Assembly: GCA_001776335.1 (NCBI GenBank)
Contig: MFAZ01000043.1
Span: 3,984 to 67,983 of the forward strand
DNA from: Candidatus Curtissbacteria bacterium RIFCSPHIGHO2_01_FULL_41_11
GTDB taxonomy: Bacteria; Patescibacteriota; Microgenomatia; Curtissbacterales; GWA2-41-24
Direction of reading: 5' to 3'
DNA: 64,000 nt
Shown: positions 25,312 to 64,000 of the stretch, piece by piece
Numbering within the stretch: position 1 is the stretch's first letter
How the letters are laid out: each line of letters starts with the position of its first letter
Translations under genes and position numbers: made by a program
The notes under the pieces: model-generated
Databases searched by the model: none
Seen by the model: the letters and a program-made list of their open reading frames with translations, nothing else
What the model was told of the DNA's origin: nothing

Positions 25312-25742
25312 CTTTAGGGAAGAAGGGCGATCGCTACGCTCAGTTTATATGAACGTAGAGGAAAGTCCAGACAGCAGAAAGCAGGGTGCGGGGCGTAAGC
25401 TCCGACGCGTATCCTTCGATAAGCTCAGGGTAACCCGAGTAAATTGAAGGGTCAAGCGCTAGTATCCCGAGTACCGAAAAGGAAAGGGGGCGGATTCTGA
25501 ACTGACAGGATTCGAGAGCCACAGTGACGATTAGATCCTAAGTCCGTCAGCTGACGGATATGGGTCGAAATGAAACGGTAAAGGTAATCCTCCCTGCTGC
25601 AACCCAGAACAAAGCCAATAATCATGCTTTCGAGGGGGCTTTAAATAGGGGCATCCGCCGGAGAGGCGGACGAATTGATGAATATCATTTCGAGATAGAT
25701 GATCGCATTTTAACAAAATCTGGCTTACTCACTTCCCTAAAG
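25312..25742 (+). ncRNA. rnpB: RNase P RNA (bacterial ribozyme)
   Basis: Perfect 11-bp P1 helix CTTTAGGGAAG (25312-25322) pairing with CTTCCCTAAAG (25732-25742). CR-I-like GAGGAAAGTCCAGAC at 25358, GCAGGGTGC, CCACAGTGACGA, a CR-III-like AACAAAGCCAATAAT...GAGGGGG, and CR-V-like ACAAAATCTGGCTTAC at 25713. GC-rich structured island producing only noise ORFs, followed by a T-run. Confidence 0.75.
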
Positions 25743-40839: not shown

Positions 40840-41259
40840 TTACTTTTGTTGTGTAGTAGTAGTTGTTGTTGGCGGCGCTACTTTTGTCACAACTTCCTTT
40901 CTGACAGTTCCGATTGTTACTCTTTTGCCTCTTTTGGTTCTTGCGTTTGTTCTGGTCCTTTGGCCTCTGACTGGCAAGTTTTTTGAATGTCTTGTGCCGC
41001 GATAAGCGCCGATTTCCTGCAATCTTTTAATGTTACTTTGGATTTCCCTTCTTAAGTCTCCTTCAACTTTGTATTCCTCGATTGCTTTTTGAAGTTTGTT
41101 AACTTGCTCTTCGGATAGATTTTTTGTTCTTATGTTTGGGTCTATTTGACATTTATTCAGGATTTTTTTTGCCATTGTCGGACCAACCCCAAAAATGTAG
41201 GGGAGAGCCGCTTCTATTCTTTTATCTTTTGGCAAATCTATGCCTGCAATACGTGCCAT
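40840..41259 (-). CDS. rpsM: 30S ribosomal protein S13
   Basis: 139 aa. [10 protein letters not shown], Thr-rich C-terminal tail. Confidence 0.95.
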
Positions 41260-41262
41260 AAA

Positions 41263-41376
41263 TTATCCTTGTCGCTGTTTGTGTCTTGGATTGATACAAA
41301 TGACGTAAAGGCGACCCTTGCGTTTGACAATTTTACAATTGATACATCTTTTTTTAACCGACGCTTGAACTTTCAT
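41263..41376 (-). CDS. rpmJ: 50S ribosomal protein L36 (zinc-ribbon form)
   Basis: Reverse-strand translation gives [37 protein letters not shown], 37 aa. Not in the ORF track because it is under 60 aa. Confidence 0.9.
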
Positions 41377-41378
41377 AA

Positions 41379-41651
41379 TTATCTATTCCTGTAGGTAATC
41401 CTTCCTTTAGTTAGATCGTATGGTGTCATTTCAAGTTTTACTCTGTCACCTGGTAGAATTCGAACATAGTGAATTCTCATTTTGCCTGATAAATGGCAAA
41501 GGACAATTCTATCCTCTTCGACATTGGGAAGAGAACCCTTTGGAACTCTGACCCTAAACATCGTGTTTGGCAGTGCTTCCGTTACTTCGCCATCGACTTC
41601 CATGACGCCCGGTTTGCTTTTGTTTGGTCTTAGATTTGAACGGTTATACAT
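41379..41651 (-). CDS. infA: Translation initiation factor IF-1 (about 16-aa N-terminal extension if the first ATG is used)
   Basis: S1-like domain [20 protein letters not shown]...[37 protein letters not shown] lies 8 nt upstream of the first ATG. Confidence 0.85.
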
Positions 41652-41823
41652 AATTAATACTCCAATGGGACACCAAGGTTTCCCCTTGGTATTCCTCTTC
41701 CTTTAGTGGATAAGCAAAGCTTGCGGTCCTCATCAATTTCATTGATTGCGGGCCTTAAATTTAATCTAGCATAGCTAGATTTAAATTTAATTTTATAAGA
41801 ATAAGTAAACGTAAATTTTATCA
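41652..41823 (-). promoter_or_regulatory. Conserved leader module copy A (family 2) between map and infA
   Basis: Contains the CTAGC-ATA-GCTAG hairpin, AAGGCCCG...GAGGACCGCAAGCUUUGCUUAU (shared with copy B) and GGAAGAGGAAUACCAAGGGGAAACCUUGGUGUCCC (shared with copy F). Confidence 0.55.
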
Positions 41824-46677: not shown

Positions 46678-46863
46678 TTACCATGATGATTTTTTGATTC
46701 CTGGTATCTCTCCTTTGTGTGCAAGATCTCTAAAACAGAGTCTGCATATTCCAAACTTGTTCATGAAAGCCCTTGGCCTGCCGCAAATCATGCAACGGTT
46801 TCGATGTCTTACCTCAAACTTTTGTTTTTTGTTGTTTTTAACTATCTTTGATGTTTTTGCCAT
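46678..46863 (-). CDS. rpsZ: 30S ribosomal protein S14 type Z (zinc-binding, 61 aa)
   Basis: [33 protein letters not shown]...[22 protein letters not shown] with a C4 motif. Confidence 0.9.
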
Positions 46864-46994
46864 AAAGATACTTGGAGAAAAGCTTAAGCTTTTCTCAATA
46901 TTCCCTTTCACTTAATAAGCAAAGCTTGCGGTCCTCGTCCTTTGAACTACGGGCCTTGGATAAAATTTTGGATTGTATTTTTAGATTACTCATA
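46864..46994 (-). promoter_or_regulatory. Conserved leader module copy B (family 2) between rplE and rpsZ
   Basis: Shares AAGGCCCG..GA.GAGGACCGCAAGCUUUGCUUAU with copy A and AATTTTGGATTGTA with copy D. Confidence 0.5.
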
Positions 46995-51711: not shown

Positions 51712-52466
51712 TTGCCAAGTGCCTCCTTTGAAATTAATAGATTGTTATTTTGTAATACTTGATACGCATTGATGTTTGATACTGGTTCTACTGTAAGTGA
51801 TTGTATGTTTCTGGTTGCCAACTTCACGTTGTCATTTTTTGAAGAAATTATAAGAAGCGTGTTTTTTTGAGCATTTAATTTTTTGAGAAGGTTGGCAACT
51901 GGTTTTGTTTTTGTAGAAATTTTTTCGAGGTTTGAGATAATATTTATGTCTCCATCTTTGGCTTTTTGTGATAGAGCATGAATTAATGCCTTGCGTCGCA
52001 TTTTTTGTGGCAGAGTAAGTTTTGCTTCTCGATATCTTGGACCAAATGTAGTTCCTCCACCGACCCAAAGGGGTGATCTTATGGATCCGGCGCGGGCATT
52101 ACCTGTTCCTTTTTGGCGCCAAGGTTTTTTGCCGCCGCCGCGGACTTCACCGCGGGTTTTGGTGTGGGCGGTATTTTTAATACTTTTTGTTTTGTAAACT
52201 CTTATCGCAGTAGCTAAAAGTTGTTTATTTGTTGTTTGTCCAAAAATTTCTTTAGGTAAGACAACTGTACCGACGCTTTTTCCGGACATATCAAAAACCT
52301 TAGCTGTTAGACCAGTTGGTTTTGTTTCTGTTTTAACAACGGGTTTTGTTATTGGTCGTTGGGATTGCTTCGCATCCGCTCGCAATGACTTTGACGTCAC
52401 GATTGATTTTTCTTTCGTTACTTTTGATGCCTTTGATACTTGCGATACTCTTACTTTATCTGCCAT
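51699..52466 (-). CDS. rplD: 50S ribosomal protein L4
   Basis: 255 aa uL4. Confidence 0.9.
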
Positions 52467-52575
52467 TTATTTTTTACTTTAAGGGCAAACCTCTACGGTT
52501 TTCCCTTAATATTCCCTTTCCCTTAAAGGACAAAATTTCACTAGCAAAGCTAGATGAAATTTTGGTTTAAGAATT
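52467..52575 (-). promoter_or_regulatory. Conserved leader module copy C (family 1), directly upstream of the rplD ATG
   Basis: About 50 nt near-identical to copies at 58651-58770 and 59257-59399. The RNA sense carries UAAGGGA-AAACCGUAGAGGUUUG-CCCUUA around GAGG, preceded by the CUAGC-UUU-GCUAG hairpin and AU-rich flanking arms. Confidence 0.6.
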
Positions 52576-53319
52576 TTATTTAGAAACCTCCTTTGTTTGT
52601 TTTTCTTCTTTCTTTTCTTCTTTTGGCTCCTCTGGCTCTTTTGGCTCTTCTGATCCCTTTGTCTCTAGTTTTTCCTCTTCATCTTCTTTAGGTTTTTCTT
52701 CCGGTGGTGCTACATATTTTTTGACCTTTCCTGTTTTTTCGATCATCAAATATCCATTTCTAAATCCCGGAACTGCACCTTTTATGACTAGCATGTTTTC
52801 TGCAGGATTTACTTCTATTACTTCCAAGCCTGTAACTGTAATTTTTTCATTGCCCTGGTGCCCCGCCATATGCTTGCCTTTATAGACTCTTCCCGGTGTT
52901 GTGCCCTGACCAATTGATCCCGGTGCTCTGTGCCTGTCTGATTGTCCGTGTGTTTTTGGCCCCCCGTGAAATCCCCACCTTTTGACTCCACCTGTGAAAC
53001 CGTGACCTTTTGTTATGCCTGTAATTTTTACTGCGTCTTGGTTTGCGAAGATGGCAACTGTGATTTTGTCGCCTATTTTTACCTGTCCATCTGTTTTAAC
53101 TTCCCTGACAAATCTTGGCGCTACTCCAACTTTGTTGACGAAATCATTTTGGGGTTTTTTGACTTTCTTTCTTGCTCCAAGCCCCAAAACTGCGTGGTCA
53201 CCTTTAATGTCGACGACGACATTTGGTTCGGCTTTTATGACCGTGACAGGAACCCGATGTCCCCGCAGGTTGTATCGGGCTTCCATATTTCCTTTGATTC
53301 CTAAAATTGTGTTTAACAT
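52576..53319 (-). CDS. rplC: 50S ribosomal protein L3 (Lys/Glu-rich C-terminal tail)
   Basis: 247 aa uL3. Confidence 0.95.
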   Translation of the reverse strand: MLNTILGIKGNMEARYNLRGHRVPVTVIKAEPNVVVDIKGDHAVLGLGARKKVKKPQNDFVNKVGVAPRFVREVKTDGQVKIGDKITVAIFANQDAVKITGITKGHGFTGGVKRWGFHGGPKTHGQSDRHRAPGSIGQGTTPGRVYKGKHMAGHQGNEKITVTGLEVIEVNPAENMLVIKGAVPGFRNGYLMIEKTGKVKKYVAPPEEKPKEDEEEKLETKGSEEPKEPEEPKEEKKEEKQTKEVSK

Positions 53320-53525
53320 TGTCGTTTAAGTACTAAAAATCGGAGACCCTTGAGATTATTCCTTCGCTTGGCTTGGGATTTTCAGGAGTCTCTCTTTAGT
53401 AAATTTCTAATTTCTAATTATTCTAATTTCTAATAATCCCGTTTTCTACGAAAAACAAATCCCAATTTTTTAATTTCTAAATTTATTTAGGTCAATTAGG
53501 TTAATTAGAGCAATTAGAAATTACT
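53320..53525 (-). promoter_or_regulatory. 206-nt structured spacer between rpsJ and rplC
   Basis: Four CTAATT repeats face four AATTAG repeats as inverted AT-rich tandem repeats. A GAGAC/GUCUC hairpin plus U5 lies about 20 nt before the rplC start. Confidence 0.4.
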
Positions 53526-53834
53526 CTACATCTTCAGTTCAATATCTACGCCGGCCGGTAGTTCGAGATGAGTTAATGAATCTATGGTTTTGTTTGTCGG
53601 TTCAATAATATCGATTAGCCTTTTGTGCGTTCTCATCTCAAATTGTTCGCGTGCATCTTTATCTGTGTGGGGTGACGTTAACACCGTAAATTTCTGAATT
53701 CTTGTTGGCAGGGGAATCGGACCCGAGATTTTGGCACCTGTCGAAAGGCCGGTGTTTATGATATCCCGACACGCAGCGTCAATGACTCTGCCGTCGTATG
53801 CTTTTAGTTTGACTCGAATTCTACCTTTAGGCAT
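53526..53834 (-). CDS. rpsJ: 30S ribosomal protein S10
   Basis: 102 aa uS10. Confidence 0.95.
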
Positions 53835-54028
53835 TTTCTTTTAATGTGCTTTTTCCGAGAAAGAAAACGAGTCGAGAGGAAATTACTTATTACTTTAAGC
53901 GGTTAGACTTGAAGTTAAATATGGTTAATTTCATATTCAGCAGTGTCCTCGACTATTCGCTCTCTCAAATAGATTTGCAATTGAGTTCGCTTCGCTCACG
54001 TAATTTTGCAAATTTGCAAAATTATAGC

Positions 54029-54070
54029 AAAAAAAATCCTCCTTCGGCAAGCTCAGGATAAACCCTTGCC
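54029..54070 (-). terminator. Intrinsic terminator after tuf: GGCAAGGGUUUAUCCUGAGCUUGCC hairpin, then GAAGGAGGA and U8
   Basis: GC hairpin 54046-54070 followed (in RNA sense) by the run at 54029-54036. Downstream are three TTGCAAA repeats, a likely S10-operon promoter region. Confidence 0.5.
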
Positions 54071-54095
54071 AAAAAAGGAGTCATTGCCTTGCCGT

Positions 54096-55277
54096 TTACG
54101 CAATAATCTTAGAGACGACGCCCGCACCTACGGTGTGGCCGCCTTCTCTAATTGCAAATCTAAGTCCCTCTTCCATCGCAACCGGCGCAATTAGTTTTAC
54201 TTTCATTTTGATATTGTCACCAGGCATGACCATTTCGGTCCCTTCCGGCAGGGTTGCTTCTCCTGTAACGTCTGTGGTTCTGATGTAAAACTGTGGTCTG
54301 TAACCGGTAAAAAATGGTGTATGTCTACCGCCCTCTTCTTTAGTCAGAATGTAGACTTCGGCTTCGAATTCTGTGTGGGGGGTGGCTGTTGCGGTTTTGG
54401 CAAGAACTTGTCCTCGTTCAACGTCGTCTTTTTCGATACCTCGAAGAAGTACTCCAACGTTGTCTCCGGCCTGACCCTGGTCAAGTTCTTTTCGAAACAT
54501 TTCAACACCGGTGACAACTGTCTTTTTGGTAGGTCTGATTCCGACAATTTCGATTTCGTCATTAACTTTGACAACTCCCCGTTCGACTCTTCCGGTTACA
54601 ACTGTACCTCTGCCTTTAATTGAAAAGACGTCTTCAACCGGCATAATAAAGGGTTTGTCAAGATCGCGAACCGGAGTTGGGATTTTTTCATCTACAGCTG
54701 CCATTAAATCTTCGATTGCTTTTACTGACTGGGCATCTCCTTCGAGAGCTTTTTTAGCAGATCCACGAATGATGGTGGCCCCTTTACCGTCGTATTCATA
54801 TTTGTCAAGAAGTTCACGGACTTCGAGTTCAACCAGATCCAGAAGTTCGGCATCCTGAACCATGTCGACCTTATTTAAGAAAACGACAATTGCAGGTACG
54901 TTAACCTGACGAGCCAGAAGAACGTGTTCTCTTGTTTGAGGCATTGGGCCGTCCGGTGCGGAAACAACAAGAATAGCGCCGTCCATTTGAGCGGCACCTG
55001 TAATCATGTTTTTGATGTAATCGGCATGACCCGGAGCATCGATGTGGGCATAATGTCTTTTTTCTGTTTCATATTCGACGTGAGTGATGTTGATGGTTAT
55101 TCCACGCTGTTTTTCTTCCGGAGCATTGTCGATTTGGTCATAGGCTTTTTCCTGCGCCATACCTTTTCCGGCCAAAACCTTGGTGATGGCTGCAGTGAGC
55201 GTGGTTTTACCATGGTCGACGTGACCAATGGTTCCGATATTTACGTGTGGTTTTGTTCGTTGATACTTTTCAGCCAT
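54096..55277 (-). CDS. tuf: Elongation factor Tu
   Basis: Start trimmed to [26 protein letters not shown]. The track ORF begins at an upstream TTG. Confidence 0.97.
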
Positions 55278-55348
55278 GTCATCAAAATAAATGAATACCA
55301 ATCAAGCCAAGATGTTACACTTGGCAGGCTGATATTCAGTTTGTGTAG

Positions 55349-55376
55349 TTTATACTATTTCTACAGGCTAGTGCAA
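55349..55376 (-). promoter_or_regulatory. Candidate tuf promoter TTGCAC-16nt-TATAAA
   Basis: -35 at 55376..55371 and -10 at 55354..55349, about 70 nt upstream of the tuf ATG. Confidence 0.35.
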
Positions 55377-55572
55377 GAGGCGAAAAAGTATTCAATATTT
55401 TCGGGGTAAAAGGGAAGTTAAAAGGAGATCCTTCGTCTCACTCAGGATGACAAATTGAATTTCTCAATTGTATTCAGTTTGTCAACTTTCCTTTGTTTCG
55501 CCTTTTTGTTTGGCAACGATTTTATCGGCCCTTCACTACGTTCAGGGTAAACTCTAATAAACTTTTGACTGA

Positions 55573-57708
55573 CTAACTCTCTTTGGTTTCACCTTTCGTT
55601 TTGGCCACAATTTTATCTGCAATATTGCCCGGGACTTCTTCGTAATGGGACGGTTCCATATAAGCAGACCCACGACCTTGAGTAATCGAGCGCAGAGTGG
55701 TGACGTAACCGGACATTTCGGAAAGCGGAACAAGCGCTTTGACGATGACGGCATTGCCATGATGGGAAGAATCTAGAATTTGGGCACGTTTTGAGGAAAG
55801 ATCGCCTATGACATCTCCCATAAATTCTTCGGGGATTGTGACTTCAATATTCATTATCGGTTCCAAAAGAATCATATTGGCTTTTTTGGCTGCAGCTTCA
55901 AAAGCCATGGATCCTGCTATTTTGAAAGCGATATCGGAAGAGTCGACATCGTGATAGCTGCCGTCGTAGACTGCGACTTTCATGTCCACCATCGGATAAC
56001 CTGCCAAAACTCCAATTTCCATTTTTTCTTTGACACCTTTTTCGATAGACGGAATAAACTCCTGAGGAATTCGGCCTCCTTTGATTTCGGAAACATATTG
56101 GAAACCCTCTCCGCGGCCGAGCGGTTCAACCCGAAGGAGACAGTGACCATATTGACCATGACCCCCGGTTTGCCTGATGTATTTTCCTTCTCCTTCTGCG
56201 ATTTGTTTAATAGTCTCGCGGTAAGCAACTTGAGGACTACCGACATTTGCCGAAACCTGAAATTCCCGCTTCATTCTGTCTACTAATATTTCAAGATGGA
56301 GTTCGCCCATCCCTGAAATAATTGTTTGGCCGGTTTCCGGGTCACCTTTAATTCTGAAGGTGGGATCTTCCTCGGATAGTCTTCCGAGAGCATAACCCAG
56401 TTTTTCCTGGTCTGCTTTGGTTTGCGGTTCTATCGCCAAAGAAATGACCGGTTCGGGAAACGAAATTGATTCAAGGACGATGGGTGCTTGCGGGTCGCTA
56501 AGTGTATCTCCTGTTCCGGTATTTTTAAGACCGACAACTGCTATAATTTCCCCCGCATAAGCTTCCTGGATTTCTTCACGTTTGTCGGCGTGCATCAAGA
56601 GGAGCCTGCCGATTCTTTCAGAATCGTGTTTGCTGGAATTTGCAACTGCGCTACCTGACTTTAAAGTCCCGGAGTAAATACGAACATAGGTGAGTTTCCC
56701 AACGTGAGGATCAACCTGGATTTTAAATGCAAGGCCTGCAAAAGGCGCTTCTACTGTCTGTTTTCTGACTTCTTTTTCGCCGGATTTTGGGTTAGTACCT
56801 TCAATTTCTGCTTTGTCCATTGGAGACGGAAGGTAGTCAACAACTGCGTCCAAAAGTGGTTGAACTCCTTTGTTTCTTAAACTTGATCCGGCCATAACAG
56901 GCACGATTTTATATTCGATTACCGATTTTCTAAGAGCCGCTTTTAGATCGTTTACGTCTAATTCTTCACCTGCCAGATATTTCTCAAGCAGCACATCGTC
57001 TGCTTCTGCAATCTTTTCGACAAGTTCGTGGCGGTATTTTTCCATGTCTGCCTTGGCACCCTCTGGAATTGGGACTTCAGAATACTTCATGCCGGTTTTG
57101 TCTGTTTCATCCCAGACATAGGCTTTTCTTGTAAGAAGATCGATCACGCCTTTAAAATCATTTTCCTTTCCAAGCGGTATGTTGTAGGGATAAGCCGGTG
57201 CTCCAAGTTTGTTTCTGATTGATTCTAATGTCGCAAAGTAATCTGCACCAAGTTTGTCCATTTTATTTACGAAACAGATTCGGGGGACTTTATATTTGTC
57301 AGCCTGGCGCCAAACTGTTTCTGATTGAGATTGAACTCCTTCTTCGGCATCGAGAACTGTTACACCACCGTCTAAAACGCGGAGTGATCTTTCGACTTCT
57401 GCCGTAAAATCTACGTGGCCCGGGGTGTCAATGATGTTAATTCTAGCTTCAATATCTTTGTGGGGACCGTCTTTTGGAGTCCAAAATGCCGTAACTGCGG
57501 CGGAAACGATTGTAATTCCACGTTCTTTTTCCTGAGCCATCCAGTCGGTAACTGTTGTTCCCTCGTCGATATTACCGAGTTTATATGACTTACCCGTGTA
57601 ATAAAGAATCCGCTCCGTTGTCGTTGTTTTACCCGCGTCAATGTGGGCAATAATGCCTATATTTCGGATACGGTCAAGTGGATATGATCTGTCTTTTGCG
57701 TCGGCCAT
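55573..57708 (-). CDS. fusA: Elongation factor G
   Basis: 711 aa. AHIDAGKTT G-domain and all five EF-G domains. Confidence 0.97.
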   Translation of the reverse strand: MADAKDRSYPLDRIRNIGIIAHIDAGKTTTTERILYYTGKSYKLGNIDEGTTVTDWMAQEKERGITIVSAAVTAFWTPKDGPHKDIEARINIIDTPGHVDFTAEVERSLRVLDGGVTVLDAEEGVQSQSETVWRQADKYKVPRICFVNKMDKLGADYFATLESIRNKLGAPAYPYNIPLGKENDFKGVIDLLTRKAYVWDETDKTGMKYSEVPIPEGAKADMEKYRHELVEKIAEADDVLLEKYLAGEELDVNDLKAALRKSVIEYKIVPVMAGSSLRNKGVQPLLDAVVDYLPSPMDKAEIEGTNPKSGEKEVRKQTVEAPFAGLAFKIQVDPHVGKLTYVRIYSGTLKSGSAVANSSKHDSERIGRLLLMHADKREEIQEAYAGEIIAVVGLKNTGTGDTLSDPQAPIVLESISFPEPVISLAIEPQTKADQEKLGYALGRLSEEDPTFRIKGDPETGQTIISGMGELHLEILVDRMKREFQVSANVGSPQVAYRETIKQIAEGEGKYIRQTGGHGQYGHCLLRVEPLGRGEGFQYVSEIKGGRIPQEFIPSIEKGVKEKMEIGVLAGYPMVDMKVAVYDGSYHDVDSSDIAFKIAGSMAFEAAAKKANMILLEPIMNIEVTIPEEFMGDVIGDLSSKRAQILDSSHHGNAVIVKALVPLSEMSGYVTTLRSITQGRGSAYMEPSHYEEVPGNIADKIVAKTKGETKES

Positions 57709-57714
57709 AGTAAA

Positions 57715-57975
57715 TTATTTGGAAATTTTGTCTGAGGAGACTTGTGCGCCTAGTGGGTGTTCCAGATTTCGAATTTCTTTTTTGACTTCCGCAACCATTG
57801 CACGCAGAACAGAAACTTCTTCGTCTGCAAGTTCCCAGGCTGCATTTTCATTCCAGGCTGCGCCGGACTCCTGGAATGCGTCGCCATATTTGGCCAGAGC
57901 ATCCTTGAGCTTAACATTTTCAAGCTCGTCGAGCCTTTTTCTCAGATCTTTTATTTTTTGTGTTTTAGTTTGCAT
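57715..57975 (-). CDS. GreA/GreB N-terminal coiled-coil-domain-like protein (86 aa), with no C-terminal FKBP-like domain
   Basis: Acidic coiled-coil ORF. The tip ESGAAWNENAAWELADEE aligns with GreA ELGDLKENAEYHAAKEE, so the E44 equivalent is conserved while D41 is replaced by Ala. GAGGAAGGAA SD 8 nt upstream. 6 nt upstream of the fusA start. Confidence 0.45.
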   Translation of the reverse strand: MQTKTQKIKDLRKRLDELENVKLKDALAKYGDAFQESGAAWNENAAWELADEEVSVLRAMVAEVKKEIRNLEHPLGAQVSSDKISK

Positions 57976-58123
57976 TTCGTCAGTTCCTTCCTCAATGTAA
58001 ACATGCTTTGGTTAACAAATTTCATTTAAGCAGAAACTAGTCATCTTATACAAGGATTGACTTTATCCATTACTAAGCGGAAAAGCTTAATTCACCTGGC
58101 TAGAGGTATTAGGATAAGCGGGA

Positions 58124-58152
58124 ATTATATCAGTGAACGTCTTTTTAAGCAA
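58124..58152 (-). promoter_or_regulatory. Strong sigma70-like promoter TTGCTT-17nt-TGATATAAT (extended -10), immediately downstream of the rpsG stop
   Basis: -35 at 58152..58147, TG at 58132-58131, -10 at 58129..58124. Drives the GreA-N-like gene and fusA. Confidence 0.5.
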
Positions 58153-58155
58153 GAA

Positions 58156-58650
58156 TTACCACCTAAAGTGGGCAAACGCCTTATTCGCTTCGGCTGCGCG
58201 GTGCATTTCGTCGCGCTTTGCAACAGCTTTGCCCGTTCCTTGTGCTGCCTCTAGAATTTCTGCTGCCAGTTTTGCCGCGATTGGTGGAAGGTTTTTGATC
58301 TTTTCGACTTCCTTGGGCGAGCGGCTTCTGGCTGAAATTACCAACCAGGTAAGAGCCAGGGATTGCCTCCTGGGACCTCGAACTTCCATGGGCACCATGT
58401 AGGAAGCACCGCCGACACGCCTTGGTCTGACTTCCATTTTTGGTGTTACATTTTCCAGGGCTTTTTCGAAGGTAGTTTGCGGGTTTTGGCCTTTGCCTTC
58501 AATATATTCGAATGCGCCGTAGACTGCCTTTTGGGCAATACTTTTTTTACCGTGCATCATGATTTTATTTACAAGCTTTGCAACGGTGGGATTCTGGTAG
58601 ATGGGATCCGCTTCAATTTTTCTTTTTATGATTTTTCCTGCTCTTGGCAT
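58156..58650 (-). CDS. rpsG: 30S ribosomal protein S7
   Basis: 164 aa uS7. Confidence 0.95.
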   Translation of the reverse strand: MPRAGKIIKRKIEADPIYQNPTVAKLVNKIMMHGKKSIAQKAVYGAFEYIEGKGQNPQTTFEKALENVTPKMEVRPRRVGGASYMVPMEVRGPRRQSLALTWLVISARSRSPKEVEKIKNLPPIAAKLAAEILEAAQGTGKAVAKRDEMHRAAEANKAFAHFRW

Positions 58651-58770
58651 GTTTTTACTTTAAGGGACAACCTCTACGGTTTTCCCTTAATATTCCCTTT
58701 CCCTTGAAGGACAAAATTACACTGGCTGAGCCAGATATAATTTTGGATTGTAAAATAAATTTATTCATAT
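58651..58770 (-). promoter_or_regulatory. Conserved leader module copy D (family 1) in the rpsL-rpsG intercistronic region
   Basis: Same 50-nt module as copies C and E. The upstream hairpin has compensatory changes, CTGGC-TGA-GCCAG here against CTAGC-AAA-GCTAG in C and E. Confidence 0.6.
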
Positions 58771-59256
58771 TTATTCTGTTGGTGCTGTAGGCTGAGATGC
58801 AGCTGCCTGGGCACCAACTGTTGCTGCTGCCTGGGCTCCTGTTGTAGCACCAGATTTCTTGGTTCCGTAAAGTGATCTTCCCTGTTTTCTATTTGAAACA
58901 CCTGTTGTGTCAAATTTGCCCCGAATTATGTGATATTTTACTCCGGGTAAATCTTTAACTCTTCCACCTCTTATTAAAACAACAGAGTGTTCTGCCAATT
59001 CGTGTCCGATACCGGGAATGTATGCTGTTATTTCCTGTCTGTTGGAGAGCCTGACGCGGGCCACTTTTCTGAGCGCAGAATTCGGTTTTCTGGGTGTCAT
59101 GGTTTTAACGATTATGCATACACCGCGCTTTTGACCGGAAGGATAACTTACATACCGGTTCGTTCGCGAGTTATAAGCACGCCTTAGACCGGTTAAACCA
59201 ATTCTTTTGATTTTTGCTTTTCTTCCTTTTCGAATTAACTGATTGACTGTTGGCAT
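58771..59256 (-). CDS. rpsL: 30S ribosomal protein S12 (Ala/Thr/Gln-rich C-terminal extension)
   Basis: 161 aa uS12. Confidence 0.95.
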
Positions 59257-59399
59257 ATCGTTACTTTAAGGGACAACCTCTACGGTTTTCCCTTAATATT
59301 CCCTTTCCCCAATGGTAAATTTAAACTAGCAAAGCTAGATTTAAATTTGATTTTAATTGAGGATGACATTTTAAGTTTTTACCGGGTAAATTTCAATGT
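59257..59399 (-). promoter_or_regulatory. Conserved leader module copy E (family 1) between rpoC and rpsL
   Basis: Near-identical 50-nt module ending ...CCCUUAAAGUAACGAUAUG at the rpsL start. Upstream is the hairpin CAAAUUUAAAUCUAGC-UUU-GCUAGUUUAAAUUU, followed by a U-rich run. Confidence 0.6.
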
Positions 59400-62300: not shown

Positions 62301-63089
62301 AACTTTAATGAATTCGTCTGCATTGTAGTCGCCTAGTTTGAAATATTCTTCTTCTGATAGAAGATCCAGGGGCTTTATAGATTTAACAAGGTTCGTGATA
62401 TTTTTGTAGATTTCTTCCAGTCTTGAAAGTTCTTTTGCGTTTTCGTCACGCATCATAGCTGTTTTGTGACGCATCACAAGTTGTGCTTCTTCTATTTTTA
62501 GATCTGACTGTTCTTTTGGACCTGTTTTTTTGGCTTTTATTACGGTGATCTCTTTTTTGCTTTCCGCTTCCAACTCTTCGATTCTCTTTTTGAGAAGGTT
62601 TTGTTGTTCTTTGCTTTTTTGAGCCAATTCGTTTTCTAAACCTTTTAAGACTGCTTTTCTCTTCTCCTCGTCGACTTCGATTACAATGTAGGATGCGAAG
62701 TAAATAACCGCATCAAGGCTTCTTGGCGAAACGTCCAAGAGAAGACCAAGTTTGGAAGGGCTTCCTTTGAAGAACCAGTTGTGGACAACAGGTGCGGCCA
62801 GAGTGATGTGGCCCATTCTTTCTCTTCGGACCCTGGATTGGGTTACTTCAACACCACATTTATCACAAATTATTCCTCGGTATCTGATTCTTTTATATTT
62901 TCCACAGTAACATTCCCAATCCTTTGTAGGTCCAAAAATACGTTCGTCAAAAAGACCATCTTTTTCCGGCTTAAGGGTTCTGTAATTTATTGTTTCGGGC
63001 TTGGTAACTTCTCCAAAAGACCAGGTTTTAATGTCATCGCCTGAGGCTATTGTAAGTTTTAATGCTTCAAAATCTACTAATTCGTTAAT
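59400..63089 (-). CDS. rpoC: DNA-directed RNA polymerase beta-prime subunit. The 5' end is uncertain: there is no ATG, GTG or TTG upstream of the conserved N-terminus, and an AUU initiator is proposed.
   Basis: The track ORF begins at an internal Met (MGHITLAAP). Codon-by-codon translation upstream recovers a conserved beta-prime N-terminus, ...INELVDFEALKLTIASGDDIKTWSFGEVTKPETINYRTLKPEKDGLFDERIFGPTKDWECYCGKYKRIRYRGIICDKCGVEVTQSRVRRERM, open to an in-frame TGA at 63168-63170. NADFDGDQMAVHVP is at the expected position. Confidence 0.85.
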   Translation of the reverse strand: MNELVDFEALKLTIASGDDIKTWSFGEVTKPETINYRTLKPEKDGLFDERIFGPTKDWECYCGKYKRIRYRGIICDKCGVEVTQSRVRRERMGHITLAAPVVHNWFFKGSPSKLGLLLDVSPRSLDAVIYFASYIVIEVDEEKRKAVLKGLENELAQKSKEQQNLLKKRIEELEAESKKEITVIKAKKTGPKEQSDLKIEEAQLVMRHKTAMMRDENAKELSRLEEIYKNITNLVKSIKPLDLLSEEEYFKLGDYNADEFIKVGMGAEAVLAVLEKVDLANSAAQLRQELTKATGQKYIKAAKKLRVVEGMRKAGIAPTWMVIKTLPVLPPDLRPMVQLSGGRFATSDLNDLYRRVINRNNRLKKLIELGAPEIILRNEKRMLQEAVDALIDSQKVKTTRASQELRSLSDMLRGKQGRFRQNLLGKRVDYSGRSVIVVGPELNLNQTGIPKEMALEMFKPFVLREVINRGFAPNVKSAKHFLERRSGEVWDILEEITKNHPVLLNRAPTLHRLGIQAFYPILIEGDAIRIHPCICAGFNADFDGDQMAVHVPLSEKSQEEAIGLMMAGRNLLRPADGSPITLPNKEMALGIYYLTSIDSTKESVENVFQSEEEVVLAVNTAKISMRQPIKVKIKKDILDTSAGRVIFNMQIPESLRFINDAVSASAIKKIIGKSVDFLTEDQVIELIDRLKTLGFEGATFSGLSVSVFDCMIVPNKQEIIQKAEKEVKNIEKNFKMGLITREEERRLSQEVWLSTTNELADLTWRSLPLTNAIKIISDSGGSRATAEQIKQLAAIRGLVTDPSGQIVPLPVKSNFREGLSVFEYFTSARGARKGLADRAIKTAESGYLTRRLVDVAHDAIIRTEDCDTKLGLLVSKHDKRQALFTLRITGRIAAVDIGPKGKKPIVTAGEEITEEKAEAIEKAGIEEVTVRSILTCEAKYGLCANCYGRDLATRQKVTIGTPVGVIAAQSIGEPGTQLTMRTFHTGGIVGLDITQGLPRVEELFEARTPKFAAKISEITGKVSVEETAEGYVVKVRSTNLKPPVEKEYFIPPTSELTVADGDQITAGTSLSSGYLDVKEILSISGLRSAQRYVIEGAQEVYESQGVPINDKHFEVIVRKMSEKVRIESSGDTALLPGELVDKHRFEQENSKILAEGGEPATAQIVILGITRAALYTESFLSAASFQETTHVLTDAAIEGKTDQLLGLKENVIIGRLIPSSAERARIKES

Positions 63090-63201
63090 TTCTCCAAGGG
63101 GACACCAGGGTTTCCCCTTGGTATTCCTCTTCCTCCATAGGATAATTTTGAACTGGCGGAGCCAGATTCAAAATTAATTTTATTTTTATAATTTTCATTG
63201 T
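63090..63201 (-). promoter_or_regulatory. Conserved leader module copy F (family 2) between rpoB and rpoC, overlapping the region where rpoC must initiate
   Basis: Shares GGAAGAGGAAUACCAAGGGGAAACCYUGGUGUCCC with copy A upstream of infA. Upstream hairpin CTGGC-GGA-GCCAG. Confidence 0.55.
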
Positions 63202-64000
63202 TTATTGCTCCAGTTCCATTGGACTGCTCGGTTTTGCGATGTCGGCTTCTGACGCAACGATTTCTGCACCAGAGACTGCAGCGAACTCTTTTGCCTTTTC
63301 CATATCAGCTTCGGTTTTTGCAGTTTCGGTTTCTTCTACAGTTTTTGCACCAATTGTTTGAACGTTTAGAGATAAACTGTTGAGCTCTTTAACCAAAACT
63401 TTGAATGATTCGGGGATTAGGGCCTGGGGAATTTCGGTTCCTTTGATGATTGCCTCAAATGCTTTTGCTCTGCCCACTACATCATCCGATTTTATGGTTA
63501 ACATTTCCTGTAGAGTGTAGGCTGCTCCATAAGCTTCAAGAGCCCAGACCTCCATTTCTCCAAGTCTTTGACCACCCATTTGAGCTTTTCCTCCCAACGG
63601 TTGCTGGGTAATAAGAGAGTATGGACCTGTTGATCTTGCGTGCGTTTTGTCCTCGACCATGTGGATAAGTTTCATAATGTATCCTTGACCTACAACAATC
63701 GGCCTATCGAAGGGGAGACCTGTTCTTCCGTCGTAGAGAACCATTCGCCCGTCTTGTGGAAGACCAGCAGATTTAAGTTCTGAAACTATTTTTTCTTCCT
63801 CAATGTGCTCGAATACCGGGAGAGCTACTTTGTAATTTAAGTTGCTTAAAGCAATTCCAAGATGAGCTTCTAAAAGTTGTCCGAGGTTCATTCGAGAAAG
63901 AACCGAAAGCGGGCTGATTATGATGTCGATTTGGGTTCCATCAGAAAGATAAGGCATGTCTGCAGCAGGAATTATTTTTGAAATAACACCTTTATTGCCG
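63202..64000 (-). CDS. rpoB: DNA-directed RNA polymerase beta subunit, C-terminal part. The gene continues beyond the window end.
   Basis: Conserved beta C-terminal region ...[27 protein letters not shown]..., stop at 63202. Confidence 0.95.

Follow-up and report, generated by a model that had tools for sequence, protein, structure and literature searches.

The window analyzed here is a stretch of 64,000 nucleotides (nt) from Candidatus Curtissbacteria bacterium RIFCSPHIGHO2_01_FULL_41_11 (contig MFAZ01000043.1, positions 3,984 to 67,983). Its L4 protein shows 100% identity to the L4 of this bacterium. Its minus strand carries a ribosomal-protein and RNA polymerase gene cluster in the order rpoB, rpoC, rpsL, rpsG, an open reading frame (ORF) of 86 amino acids, fusA, tuf, rpsJ, rplC, rplD ... 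rplE, rpsN ... map, infA and rpsM. Six junctions of this cluster are occupied by copies of a structured cassette, which is a generic, evolutionarily mobile inter-gene element and not a regulator specific to the ribosomal proteins S12, S7 or L4. The original prediction had pointed to three near-identical leader modules ahead of rplD, rpsG and rpsL, and these proved to be real. A 49-nt core string occurs exactly three times in the window (chance expectation 0), at 52474-52522 with two mismatches and at 58655-58703 and 59261-59309 with none, each time behind an AU-rich hairpin. The GC tip ascribed to this upstream hairpin was found as well, as CTRGC-NNN-GCYAG at 52541-52553, 58722-58734 and 59326-59338. 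Repeat finding recovered the same family and linked the upstream hairpins to it. The copies fill their intergenic regions entirely (rplC-rplD, 52467-52575, 109 nt; rpsL-rpsG, 58651-58770, 120 nt; rpoC-rpsL, 59257-59399, 143 nt), and the core ends 4, 4 and 8 nt from the ATG in the three leaders.

JGI metagenomes were scanned with a 20-base degenerate core pattern; related loci are cited by L-numbers. A covariance model, named R1 like the purine tract of the cassette, was built from an alignment of 40 distinct full copies. Over the window it recognizes exactly six copies, all on the minus strand, of which the remaining three precede rpoC, rpsN and infA. The second family that had been set beside the three leaders is by this model no separate one, and all copies form a single family of six members; the names family 1 and family 2 are kept below for its subgroups. 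In the 37 kb that lie outside the gene cluster the model detected no cassette. A seventh copy is located just past the end of the window, with ruvX on one side and a small ORF on the other. The cassette measures about 100-125 nt and reads in RNA sense TA(A/C)AAU, hairpin 1, a UCC-containing linker, the purine tract R1 (GGAARRGGAAUA), hairpin 2, a tail RRAG and, after 3-13 nt, the start codon. The six copies are as follows.

Copy E, rpoC-rpsL junction, 59257-59399, minus strand: model match 59259-59358, 95.2 bits; hexamer TAAAAT 59350-59355; hairpin 1 59317-59348; linker 59309-59316; R1 GGAAAGGGAAUA 59297-59308; hairpin 2 59266-59296; tail AGUAACGAU 59257-59265; rpsL ATG 59254-59256; the region also holds a sigma-70-like promoter, TTGAAA-17-TAAAAT, at 59368-59396.
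Copy D, rpsL-rpsG junction, 58651-58770, minus strand: model match 58653-58754, 100 bits; hexamer TACAAT 58747-58752; hairpin 1 58713-58744; linker 58703-58712; R1 58691-58702; hairpin 2 58660-58690; tail 58651-58659; an ORF of 37 codons at 58655-58768 begins 2 nt past the rpsL stop, traverses both hairpins and terminates 4 nt short of the rpsG ATG.
Copy C, rplC-rplD junction, 52467-52575, minus strand: model match 52472-52573, 106.1 bits; degenerate hexamer TTAAAC 52565-52570; hairpin 1 52532-52563; linker 52522-52531; R1 52510-52521; hairpin 2 52479-52509; tail 52467-52478.
Family-2 copy, rpoB-rpoC junction, 63085-63207, minus strand: model match 63087-63185, 101.1 bits; hexamer 63177-63182; hairpin 1 63144-63175; R1 GGAAGAGGAAUA 63122-63133; hairpin 2 63094-63121; GGAG 63092-63095; the rpoC start is ATT at 63087-63089; an ORF of 37 codons at 63085-63198 spans from the rpoB stop to the rpoC start.
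Family-2 copy, map-infA junction, 41652-41798, minus strand: model match 41655-41798, 59.1 bits; hairpin 1 41757-41788; nested insert of 47 nt 41710-41756; R1 41690-41701; hairpin 2 41662-41689; GGAG 8 nt ahead of the infA ATG at 41649-41651.
Degenerate copy, rplE-rpsN junction, 46864-46979, minus strand: model match 46866-46979, 31.8 bits; hexamer TACAAT 46972-46977; hairpin 1 reduced to fused arms; nested insert 46915-46957; R1 UGAAAGGGAAUA kept at 46899-46910; hairpin 2 46872-46898 of different sequence (GAGAAAAGC/GCUUUUCUC), still a purine arm against a pyrimidine arm; rpsN ATG 46861-46863.

Fold and promoter-like signals

Hairpin 1 consists of eight covarying pairs that are rich in AU, together with an AU bulge and a CUGGC-UUU-GCCAG tip. 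Hairpin 2 comprises 13 positions. Its 5' arm is the purine arm (AAGGGRAAACC) and its 3' arm the pyrimidine arm, and it has a single A.G mismatch, which is present in 38 of the 40 distinct copies. This two-hairpin fold is predicted for each of the three leaders (z-scores -4.5 to -5.3 relative to dinucleotide shuffles). The second hairpin had been drawn as a 7-bp stem with a 15-nt loop that sequesters a GAGG. It is actually a helix of 12-13 positions with the one A.G mismatch and the 5-nt loop GUAGA, and half of the GAGG is paired because the helix is longer and the loop that short. The GUAGA loop is shared by the three leaders and, among the 40 distinct copies, by one other (L123). A GAGG in the loop occurs in only five of the 40, the other loops being GUUA, GCAA, UU or a long insert, and its function as a Shine-Dalgarno sequence (SD) was rejected as it is not conserved. 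The two differences that distinguish copy C (GT to TG) leave the helix intact and merely shift the A.G mismatch.

When the 40 copies were aligned on the two-hairpin structure, 93.7% of the paired cells were complementary as against 82.3% in shuffles. Double, compensatory changes affected 12 pairs and 119 cells (33.8 expected), and the covariation score of 0.313, compared with 0.105, was reached by none of 500 shuffles. The signal collapsed in controls with slid pairing partners. Both hairpins thus covary strongly, in agreement with the view that the modules share a structured cis element. The base of hairpin 2 covaries between UU/AA, CU/AG and CC/GG, and families 1 and 2 differ there by a compensatory change from UU..AA to CC..GG. 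Through this change the tail AAAG becomes GGAG, a correctly spaced SD for infA. The purine tract R1 is kept even where the sequence of hairpin 2 is entirely replaced, as in the rpsN copy and at L157:6714.

R1 also shows mirror symmetry with the purine arm of hairpin 2. Its variable base N1 (alignment A2, column 65) equals the variable base N5 of that arm (column 80) in 40 of 40 class-1 copies, and a mirrored variant combines AAGGAG in hairpin 2 with GAGGAA in R1 (L135 7388-7490; L081 549-696). In asymmetric variants a mirror relation fits better than a direct repeat. This symmetry could reflect a tertiary contact, an alternative pairing or shared ancestry. A purine-motif triple helix R1*R2-Y was considered and left as an unexplained observation, given that the covariation may simply be subfamily ancestry. 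RNA strands are poor in purine-motif triplexes.

The original prediction had also offered a promoter-associated repeat. In its widest form this alternative holds that the cassette is a promoter, or a terminator followed by a promoter, in which TAAAAU serves as a -35-independent -10 element as in other reduced genomes, hairpin 1 terminates and the rest forms a 5' untranslated region (UTR). In nearly all copies a conserved hexamer TA(A/C)AAT does stand 5' of hairpin 1, at a distance of 1-2 nt, and a long gene cluster would need several restarts without fixed positions, which matches the two to six copies found at variable positions per cluster. In L121 the hexamer is preceded by a good -35 (TTGGAA-17-TATGAT), and it drives a gene for a tRNA. 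Other copies precede the first genes of operons (hrcA, the DUF2795 gene) and a divergent gene pair in L123. Moreover, the 5-bp tip of hairpin 1 with its U-rich 3' arm passes a loose terminator scan on both strands. However, the best -35 matches of the cassette hexamers average 2.3 of 6 positions, and those of 949 control hexamers 2.57. Yet canonical -35/-10 promoters do exist in this organism. In the window these are TTGCCG-18-TATAAT with an upstream TG before rpsJ (54021-54050) and the promoter listed above upstream of the rpsL cassette. Clear canonical promoters also lie upstream of the cassettes in L117 and L119. A full sigma-70 promoter was therefore rejected for lack of a -35. A start site 7 nt past the hexamer would delete the outer 5' arm of hairpin 1, yet these pairs covary, which argues against a promoter. 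As a terminator, hairpin 1 has a GC stem of only 5 bp without a proper U tract after it; the U-rich stretch takes part in pairing itself, and in many copies G/C makes up its proximal part (GCCAAUUUU, GGAAACUUU).

Other promoter-like signals within the cassette were rejected too. The element TATTAA, read as part of an internal promoter TTGTCC-16-TATTAA, belongs to hairpin 2: it varies to TACCAA with compensation 30 nt downstream, its TT covaries with the hairpin 2 AA, and the supposed spacer is the most conserved part of the cassette. Sigma-54 (TGGC..TGC in the hairpin tip) and extracytoplasmic function-type (GGAAT-N18-GTT) elements have a wrong spacing or one that varies with loop length. A DnaA-box reading of the linker (TTATCCAC) was regarded as coincidence because it exists in some copies only. 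Putative mobile promoters resemble the cassette in that the same upstream sequence stands before non-homologous genes of one genome. The cassette differs from them in lacking a -35 and in having helices and a purine tract, not hexamers, as its conserved parts. With a single -10-like hexamer lacking a -35 and an internal TATTAA that covaries in a helix, the reading as a promoter is not supported, and the alternative in its widest form is considered unlikely.

Junction turnover, lineage range and selection

The 20-base core pattern retrieved 116 metagenome stretches, of which three or four are chance matches in coding DNA and the rest are cassettes. About 50 further distinct copies are present on related metagenome contigs. 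Filled junctions measure 110-180 nt, whereas the same junctions are -4 to +20 nt long when empty. At least 19 different junctions are used, and the occupied set differs in every genome. In the window these are rpoB-rpoC, rpoC-rpsL, rpsL-rpsG, rplC-rplD, rplE-rpsN and map-infA. Relatives carry cassettes at the junctions rpsJ-rplC, rplB-rpsS, rpsC-rplP, rpsQ-rplN, rpsN-rpsH, rpsH-rplF and rplO-secY, and further at infA-rpmJ, rpsD-rpoA, fusA-tuf, rpmI-rplT and between rpsG and an ORF. Outside the gene cluster, copies are located at rsmH-ftsL and ahead of hrcA, the DUF2795 gene and genes for proline-rich membrane proteins. No cassette is present at rpsL-rpsG and rplC-rplD in L001, L111, L128 and L136. 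Turnover extends to the strain level. Three assemblies of the same population, which are 99.95% identical to the window elsewhere, differ at rpoB-rpoC: L082 and L083 show the classical ATGA overlap, whereas the window and L081 harbor a 121-nt cassette. With the cassette come a patch of extra substitutions at the 3' end of rpoB and a change of the rpoC ATG to ATT (L081 5440-5570 compared with L082 5540-5570). These comparisons show the cassette behaving like an insert that separates the stop codon of one gene from the start codon of the next, in operons whose genes are otherwise tightly packed.

The location of the cassette as a leader is therefore not fixed, since the occupied junction changes between genomes and even between strains. 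A special link to S12, S7 and L4, as the first three copies had seemed to imply, did not hold up either: the cassette also precedes rplC, rplF, rpsH, rplP, rplN, rpsS, rpmJ, rplT, tuf, secY, rpoA, infA, ftsL, hrcA, the DUF2795 gene, a tRNA gene and bare terminators. Autoregulatory leaders specific to these proteins, the lead idea at the outset, would fit the conserved structure and the place before rpsG and rplD, which recalls the S7 and L4 operators of Escherichia coli. Those sites, the S7 site of the str operon and the L4 site in the S10 leader, are like the Rfam leaders structured RNAs just upstream of rpsG or within the S10 operon. They show no sequence or structure match to the cassette, which is not gene-specific and is found before rplD itself, not in the S10 leader. 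Together with its presence before more than 19 different genes, non-ribosomal genes and a tRNA gene included, the empty state of the same junctions in close relatives and the lack of any match to an Rfam leader, this makes protein-specific autoregulation extremely improbable.

Orientation is strongly biased, with about 45 sense copies and one full antisense copy. Scattered copies outside leader contexts, which would have pointed to a selfish repeat, were found in part: a few copies lie before a terminator, one is antisense, and tRNA-linked elements contain the core. Copies within a genome are more similar to each other than to those of other genomes. Within-genome homogenization, which had been proposed as well, fits the near-identity of the three leaders and their common GUAGA loop. 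This near-identity would thus reflect recent copying or gene conversion within this genome rather than a protein-specific regulator.

For cassettes that share a junction, identity is 85%, and 86-90% in the core, compared with 29-40% identity at the four-fold degenerate sites of the flanking genes, which are saturated. The rpsD-rpoA copies of L107 and L160 are orthologous, as they share their flanking sequence, and they differ by compensatory substitutions in hairpin 1. An identity of 85% where neutral sites are saturated, combined with compensatory changes, argues against a neutrally decaying repeat and shows that the cassette copies are under purifying selection.

These data bear on the possibility of a selfish, non-autonomous mobile repeat, similar to miniature inverted-repeat transposable elements (MITEs), REP or ERIC, which persists only where it is harmless, that is, between genes and in the non-blocking orientation. 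Such a repeat would account for the patchy occupancy of junctions, the presence/absence polymorphism between strains, the orphan copies before terminators, the antisense copy and the greater similarity within than between genomes. It would also agree with the core of R1 and hairpin 2 inside tRNA-linked elements that are flanked by a duplicated tRNA 3' half in an integration-like manner. However, selfish insertions should decay, whereas orthologous copies are conserved with compensatory changes. Only about five to eight copies occur per genome region sampled, the window's 37 kb outside the cluster are free of them, and the orientation bias of about 45:1 is not expected. The cassette ends (TAAAAT... 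and ...CCCTTAAAG) are not inverted repeats as in MITEs, Correia or ERIC elements. Comparison of filled and empty sites revealed no clean, consistent target duplication, at best ATGAA(CG)AATTA at rpoB-rpoC and AAATAA at rplC-rplD. The two hairpins resemble each other neither in sequence nor in composition, which separates the cassette from IS200/IS605-derived (PATE) and REP elements, where one Y1 transposase recognizes similar subterminal hairpins at both ends, and no transposase was noticed beside the copies in a search that was not systematic. ERIC/IRU, REP/BIME, Correia (NEMIS), RUP and BOX elements are likewise non-coding, transcribed intergenic repeats of about 100 nt that form RNA hairpins, vary between strains and can alter mRNA stability or processing. 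They differ in being a single long palindrome or having terminal inverted repeats, and in occurring in both orientations, with copy numbers from tens to hundreds and without restriction to certain intergenic sites. The cassette has two unlike hairpins and no inverted ends, keeps mostly to one orientation, abuts start codons and occurs in few copies, mostly in ribosomal-protein operons. A purely selfish repeat is therefore regarded as improbable.

The cassette was previously undescribed and belongs to no described family. A search of the whole window against Rfam at the gathering threshold yielded only a tRNA. The region 41000-64000 at E<=5 yielded only Alpha_RBS with 19 bits (gathering threshold 38), away from the cassettes at 41227-41308. 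Gathering and permissive searches of the window, 29 related loci and one of the tRNA-linked (class-2) elements described below gave no relevant match, and 20 loci searched at the gathering threshold contained only tRNAs, plus one group I intron elsewhere. The view that no known ribosomal-protein leader explains the module is thereby upheld for Rfam as a whole, and full-text literature searches returned no description of the cassette. None of 80 ribosomal-protein loci of other phyla was matched by the covariance model; this set covers four further groups of the Candidate Phyla Radiation (Paceibacterota, Saccharibacteria, Staskawiczbacteria, Nealsonbacteria). It found no cassette in the relatives L001 and L204, whose L4 is 57% and 55% identical to that of the window, whereas cassettes are present in relatives with 59-65% identical L4 (L202, L203, L205, the 254-kb contig behind L128, L140 and L157). 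This shows that the range of the family is limited to a subclade within Candidatus Curtissbacteria. A phage origin was rejected, as a viral scan gave only a chance match inside a coding gene.

Translation start and candidate roles

Where a junction is empty, the 3' end of the gene upstream contains an SD at a distance of 8-12 nt from the ATG. At the rplD junction AAGGAGG is still present at the 3' end of rplC, now about 125 nt from the rplD ATG, and the cassette would therefore have to permit initiation on an essential gene. Ahead of rpoA the cassette landed upstream of the existing SD, and GGAGGUG was kept. The tail of family 2 contains GGAG 3-8 nt from the start codon, that of family 1 AAAG. 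In family 1 the nearest SD-like sequence is AAGGG in R1, with five pairs to the canonical anti-SD.

Ten of 47 junction copies, including those of rpsG, rpoC and infA in the window, are bridged by an ORF of 36-59 codons, whose start lies at -4 to +12 nt relative to the upstream stop and whose end lies at -4 to +14 nt relative to the downstream start; the others, among them the window rplD and rpsL copies, have none. The ORF of L203 overlaps both neighbors (TAAATG ... ATGA). In addition to the ten, at L205:9482 the L15 reading frame continues through the cassette, which thereby forms a C-terminal extension with its end on the secY ATGA. A conserved leader peptide was rejected, as the bridging ORFs use three different frames. 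This implies that ribosome transit, not the product, would matter. Mycobacterial interspersed repetitive units (MIRUs) are also short intra-operon repeats oriented with their flanking genes, and some contain a small ORF that touches the upstream stop and the downstream start and so keeps coupling, as do rpsG, rpoC, infA, L203:11905 and L119 here. MIRUs are tandem units of 40-100 bp without a conserved two-hairpin fold, whereas the cassette occurs as a single copy per site, shows strong structural covariation and has a bridging ORF in about 20% of cases, with a peptide that is not conserved across its three frames.

We tentatively read the cassette as a lineage-specific, selected but position-labile RNA module of inter-cistronic regions and 5' UTRs, which is co-transcribed with its flanking genes, insulates cistrons and supplies translation initiation; on present evidence this reading has a little less than an even chance of being right. 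The cassette would act at the RNA level as a generic expression module. Its two stable hairpins around a single-stranded tract would insulate by protecting the 3' end of the upstream cistron and the 5' end of the downstream cistron, and the tract between them may be a processing site. Inter-cistronic stabilizer and processing hairpins (Rhodobacter puf, E. coli pap, malEFG-REP, Bacillus subtilis cggR-gapA, plastid inter-cistronic expression elements) have a comparable arrangement of two stable hairpins around a single-stranded tract. They are locus-specific, whereas the cassette is a portable repeated module.

In exchange for stop-start coupling the cassette would provide a translation start of its own, possibly by three routes. 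In family 2 the tail GGAG would serve as a true SD, half-paired in hairpin 2. In family 1 (rpsL, rpsG, rplD), where the tail may have decayed to AAAG, initiation would depend on the SD-like R1 and an A-rich unstructured spacer, with hairpin 2 holding R1 the equivalent of about 10-15 nt from the AUG. In about a fifth of the copies (rpsG, rpoC, infA) a short ORF would relay ribosomes across the cassette. The second route would resemble the split ribosome-binding sites of phage T4 genes 38 and 25 and ribosome standby sites, in that an SD-like tract (AAGGG/GAGG in R1) is linearly too far away and a hairpin would bridge the distance. The T4 SD is canonical, whereas the hairpin of the cassette pairs an SD-like strand with an anti-SD-like strand.

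Several points weigh against the reading as an RNA expression module. Its co-transcription, in-vivo fold, processing and route of initiation are putative. In the linear sequence R1 and the AUG are about 50 nt apart, and the role of R1 as a bridged SD would hold by analogy. The bridging ORF is found in a minority of copies only. Copies 4 nt upstream of a tRNA gene (L121, L091) and directly before a terminator (L085, L095, L115, L143) cannot serve translation. About two thirds of the unbiased hits fall in the ribosomal-protein/RNA polymerase gene cluster, which a purely generic module does not predict. The types of mismatch also show no clear strand asymmetry (G.U 4 versus A.C 7 in hairpin 1, 8 versus 4 in hairpin 2, 12 versus 11 overall), so that a sense-strand structure at the RNA level is not proven against one at the DNA level. 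Finally, this reading does not account for the conservation of TAAAAU and of the hairpin 1 tip, both of which suggest a binding partner.

Such a partner is the center of another explanation, in which the cassette is a platform for one trans-acting factor that co-ordinates growth operons, either an rrn-type antitermination site (a hairpin followed by a boxA-like linear element) or the target of a global RNA-binding protein, and terminator-backed copies act as titrating small RNAs. The conserved TAAAAU, GC-UUU-GC tip and GGAARRGGAAUA are single-stranded or apical and suggest recognition by a protein, which would agree with R1 being kept when hairpin 2 changes. The enrichment near ribosomal-protein, RNA polymerase, tuf, infA, secY and tRNA genes points in the same direction, and a cassette followed by a terminator resembles a small-RNA gene of about 115 nt. 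The linker UGUCCUUUAAG is loosely similar to boxA (UGCUCUUUAACAA, about 8 of 11 positions), and none of the loci fetched contained an rRNA. The boxA similarity is weak and the linker variable, and the junction positions are not conserved; a factor platform thus appears quite improbable. A stronger version of the expression-module reading is rather unlikely. By this version the cassette is a new, portable class of gene-junction RNA, self-contained and of conserved structure, that can be dropped between essential coupled genes while ribosomes are still delivered by the SD-like tract, which an SD:anti-SD-like hairpin docks, or by the relay ORF, a dedicated host factor tunes the synthesis of ribosome components, and the mirror symmetry is a real tertiary contact or switch.

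Ribosomal-protein operons are among the most conserved gene arrangements of bacteria, and their junctions usually measure a few bases and are translationally coupled. Here a lineage with reduced genomes tolerates, and apparently maintains by selection, a structured insert of 100-125 nt at shifting junctions that include rpoB-rpoC. If the cassette supplies initiation or insulation, it would represent a natural, compact and portable inter-cistronic expression element, and, if true, a handle on how bacteria of the Candidate Phyla Radiation start translation on genes without an SD. To our knowledge, almost no experimental gene-expression data exist for these bacteria.

Related elements and neighboring genes

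The cassettes also affect genome annotation. Gene callers cut the window rpoC to 1138 amino acids, lengthened L15 to 187 amino acids (L205 9024-9587) and called phantom ORFs of 59 and 37 amino acids through cassettes (L205 4829-5008; L081 5453-5566). Public annotations of these genomes will contain artefacts through cassettes, or genuine relay ORFs, and contig breaks introduced by assemblers at the cassette are likely.

Some copies depart from the usual arrangement. The full antisense cassette (L113 812-912) lies between two co-directional genes. Several core-only copies without hairpin 1 are found antisense between a tRNA gene and the next gene (L101 1718-1792, L116, L112 and L145). In these the complement of R1 (CCUUCC) can pair with the next gene's own SD (GGAAGG).

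The core of R1 and hairpin 2 further occurs inside non-coding elements of about 200-230 nt directly 3' of tRNA genes, termed class 2 (L158 6970-7200; L142 7650-7970; L125 2530-3140, minus strand; L093, L094, L099, L104, L122, L137, L138, L155 and L161). A decayed inverted copy of the tRNA T-arm stands first in these elements and a direct copy of the tRNA 3' half last, and an additional purine/pyrimidine hairpin AGGGAGAAAG..UUUCUCCCU is present. Their presence varies between related contigs. Rfam at E<=10 identified only the tRNA in L158 6880-7320. The class-2 elements look like remnants of integrative mini-elements, and a mobile origin of the core thus stays plausible.

Within cassettes, a nested insert of about 45 nt (AAGGCCCG...GAGGACCGCAAGCTTTGCTTAT) recurs as a repeat inside a repeat. 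It is present in the window at 41710-41756 and 46915-46957 (minus strand) and in L141, L081 (590-636), L203 (4380-4425) and L205 (4880-4930). In some copies it is inserted between hairpin 1 and R1, in L203 inside the loop of hairpin 2. A distinct small hairpin repeat, ATCCTGAG-N5-10-CGAAGGAT, is not part of the cassette family and resides in the long intergenic regions fusA-tuf, tuf-rpsJ and rpsJ-rplC; its sites on the minus strand are 55428-55448, 54036-54059, 53359-53388 and 25411-25431.

Some of the neighboring genes show features of their own. The window L4 has an N-terminal extension of about 59 amino acids (52290-52466), which is conserved in relatives and contains an in-frame small palindromic repeat CATTGCGAGCGGATGCGAAGCAAT with its palindrome at 52364-52387. 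At the same place of L4, L001 (10001-10180) encodes SLRAKRSNL and VIPAKAGIQ-type peptides. The NCBI annotation lets the window L4 begin at an internal Met, with 196 amino acids. The window S12 (rpsL 58771-59256) has 161 amino acids and an Ala/Gln/Thr-rich C-terminal extension, which is also found in L001 (161 amino acids). Between rpsG and fusA a small ORF of 80-91 amino acids without a Pfam match is conserved in this lineage; it is located at 57715-57975 (minus strand) in the window, at 4452-4727 in L203, where a cassette stands ahead of it, and at 3811-4053 in L204.

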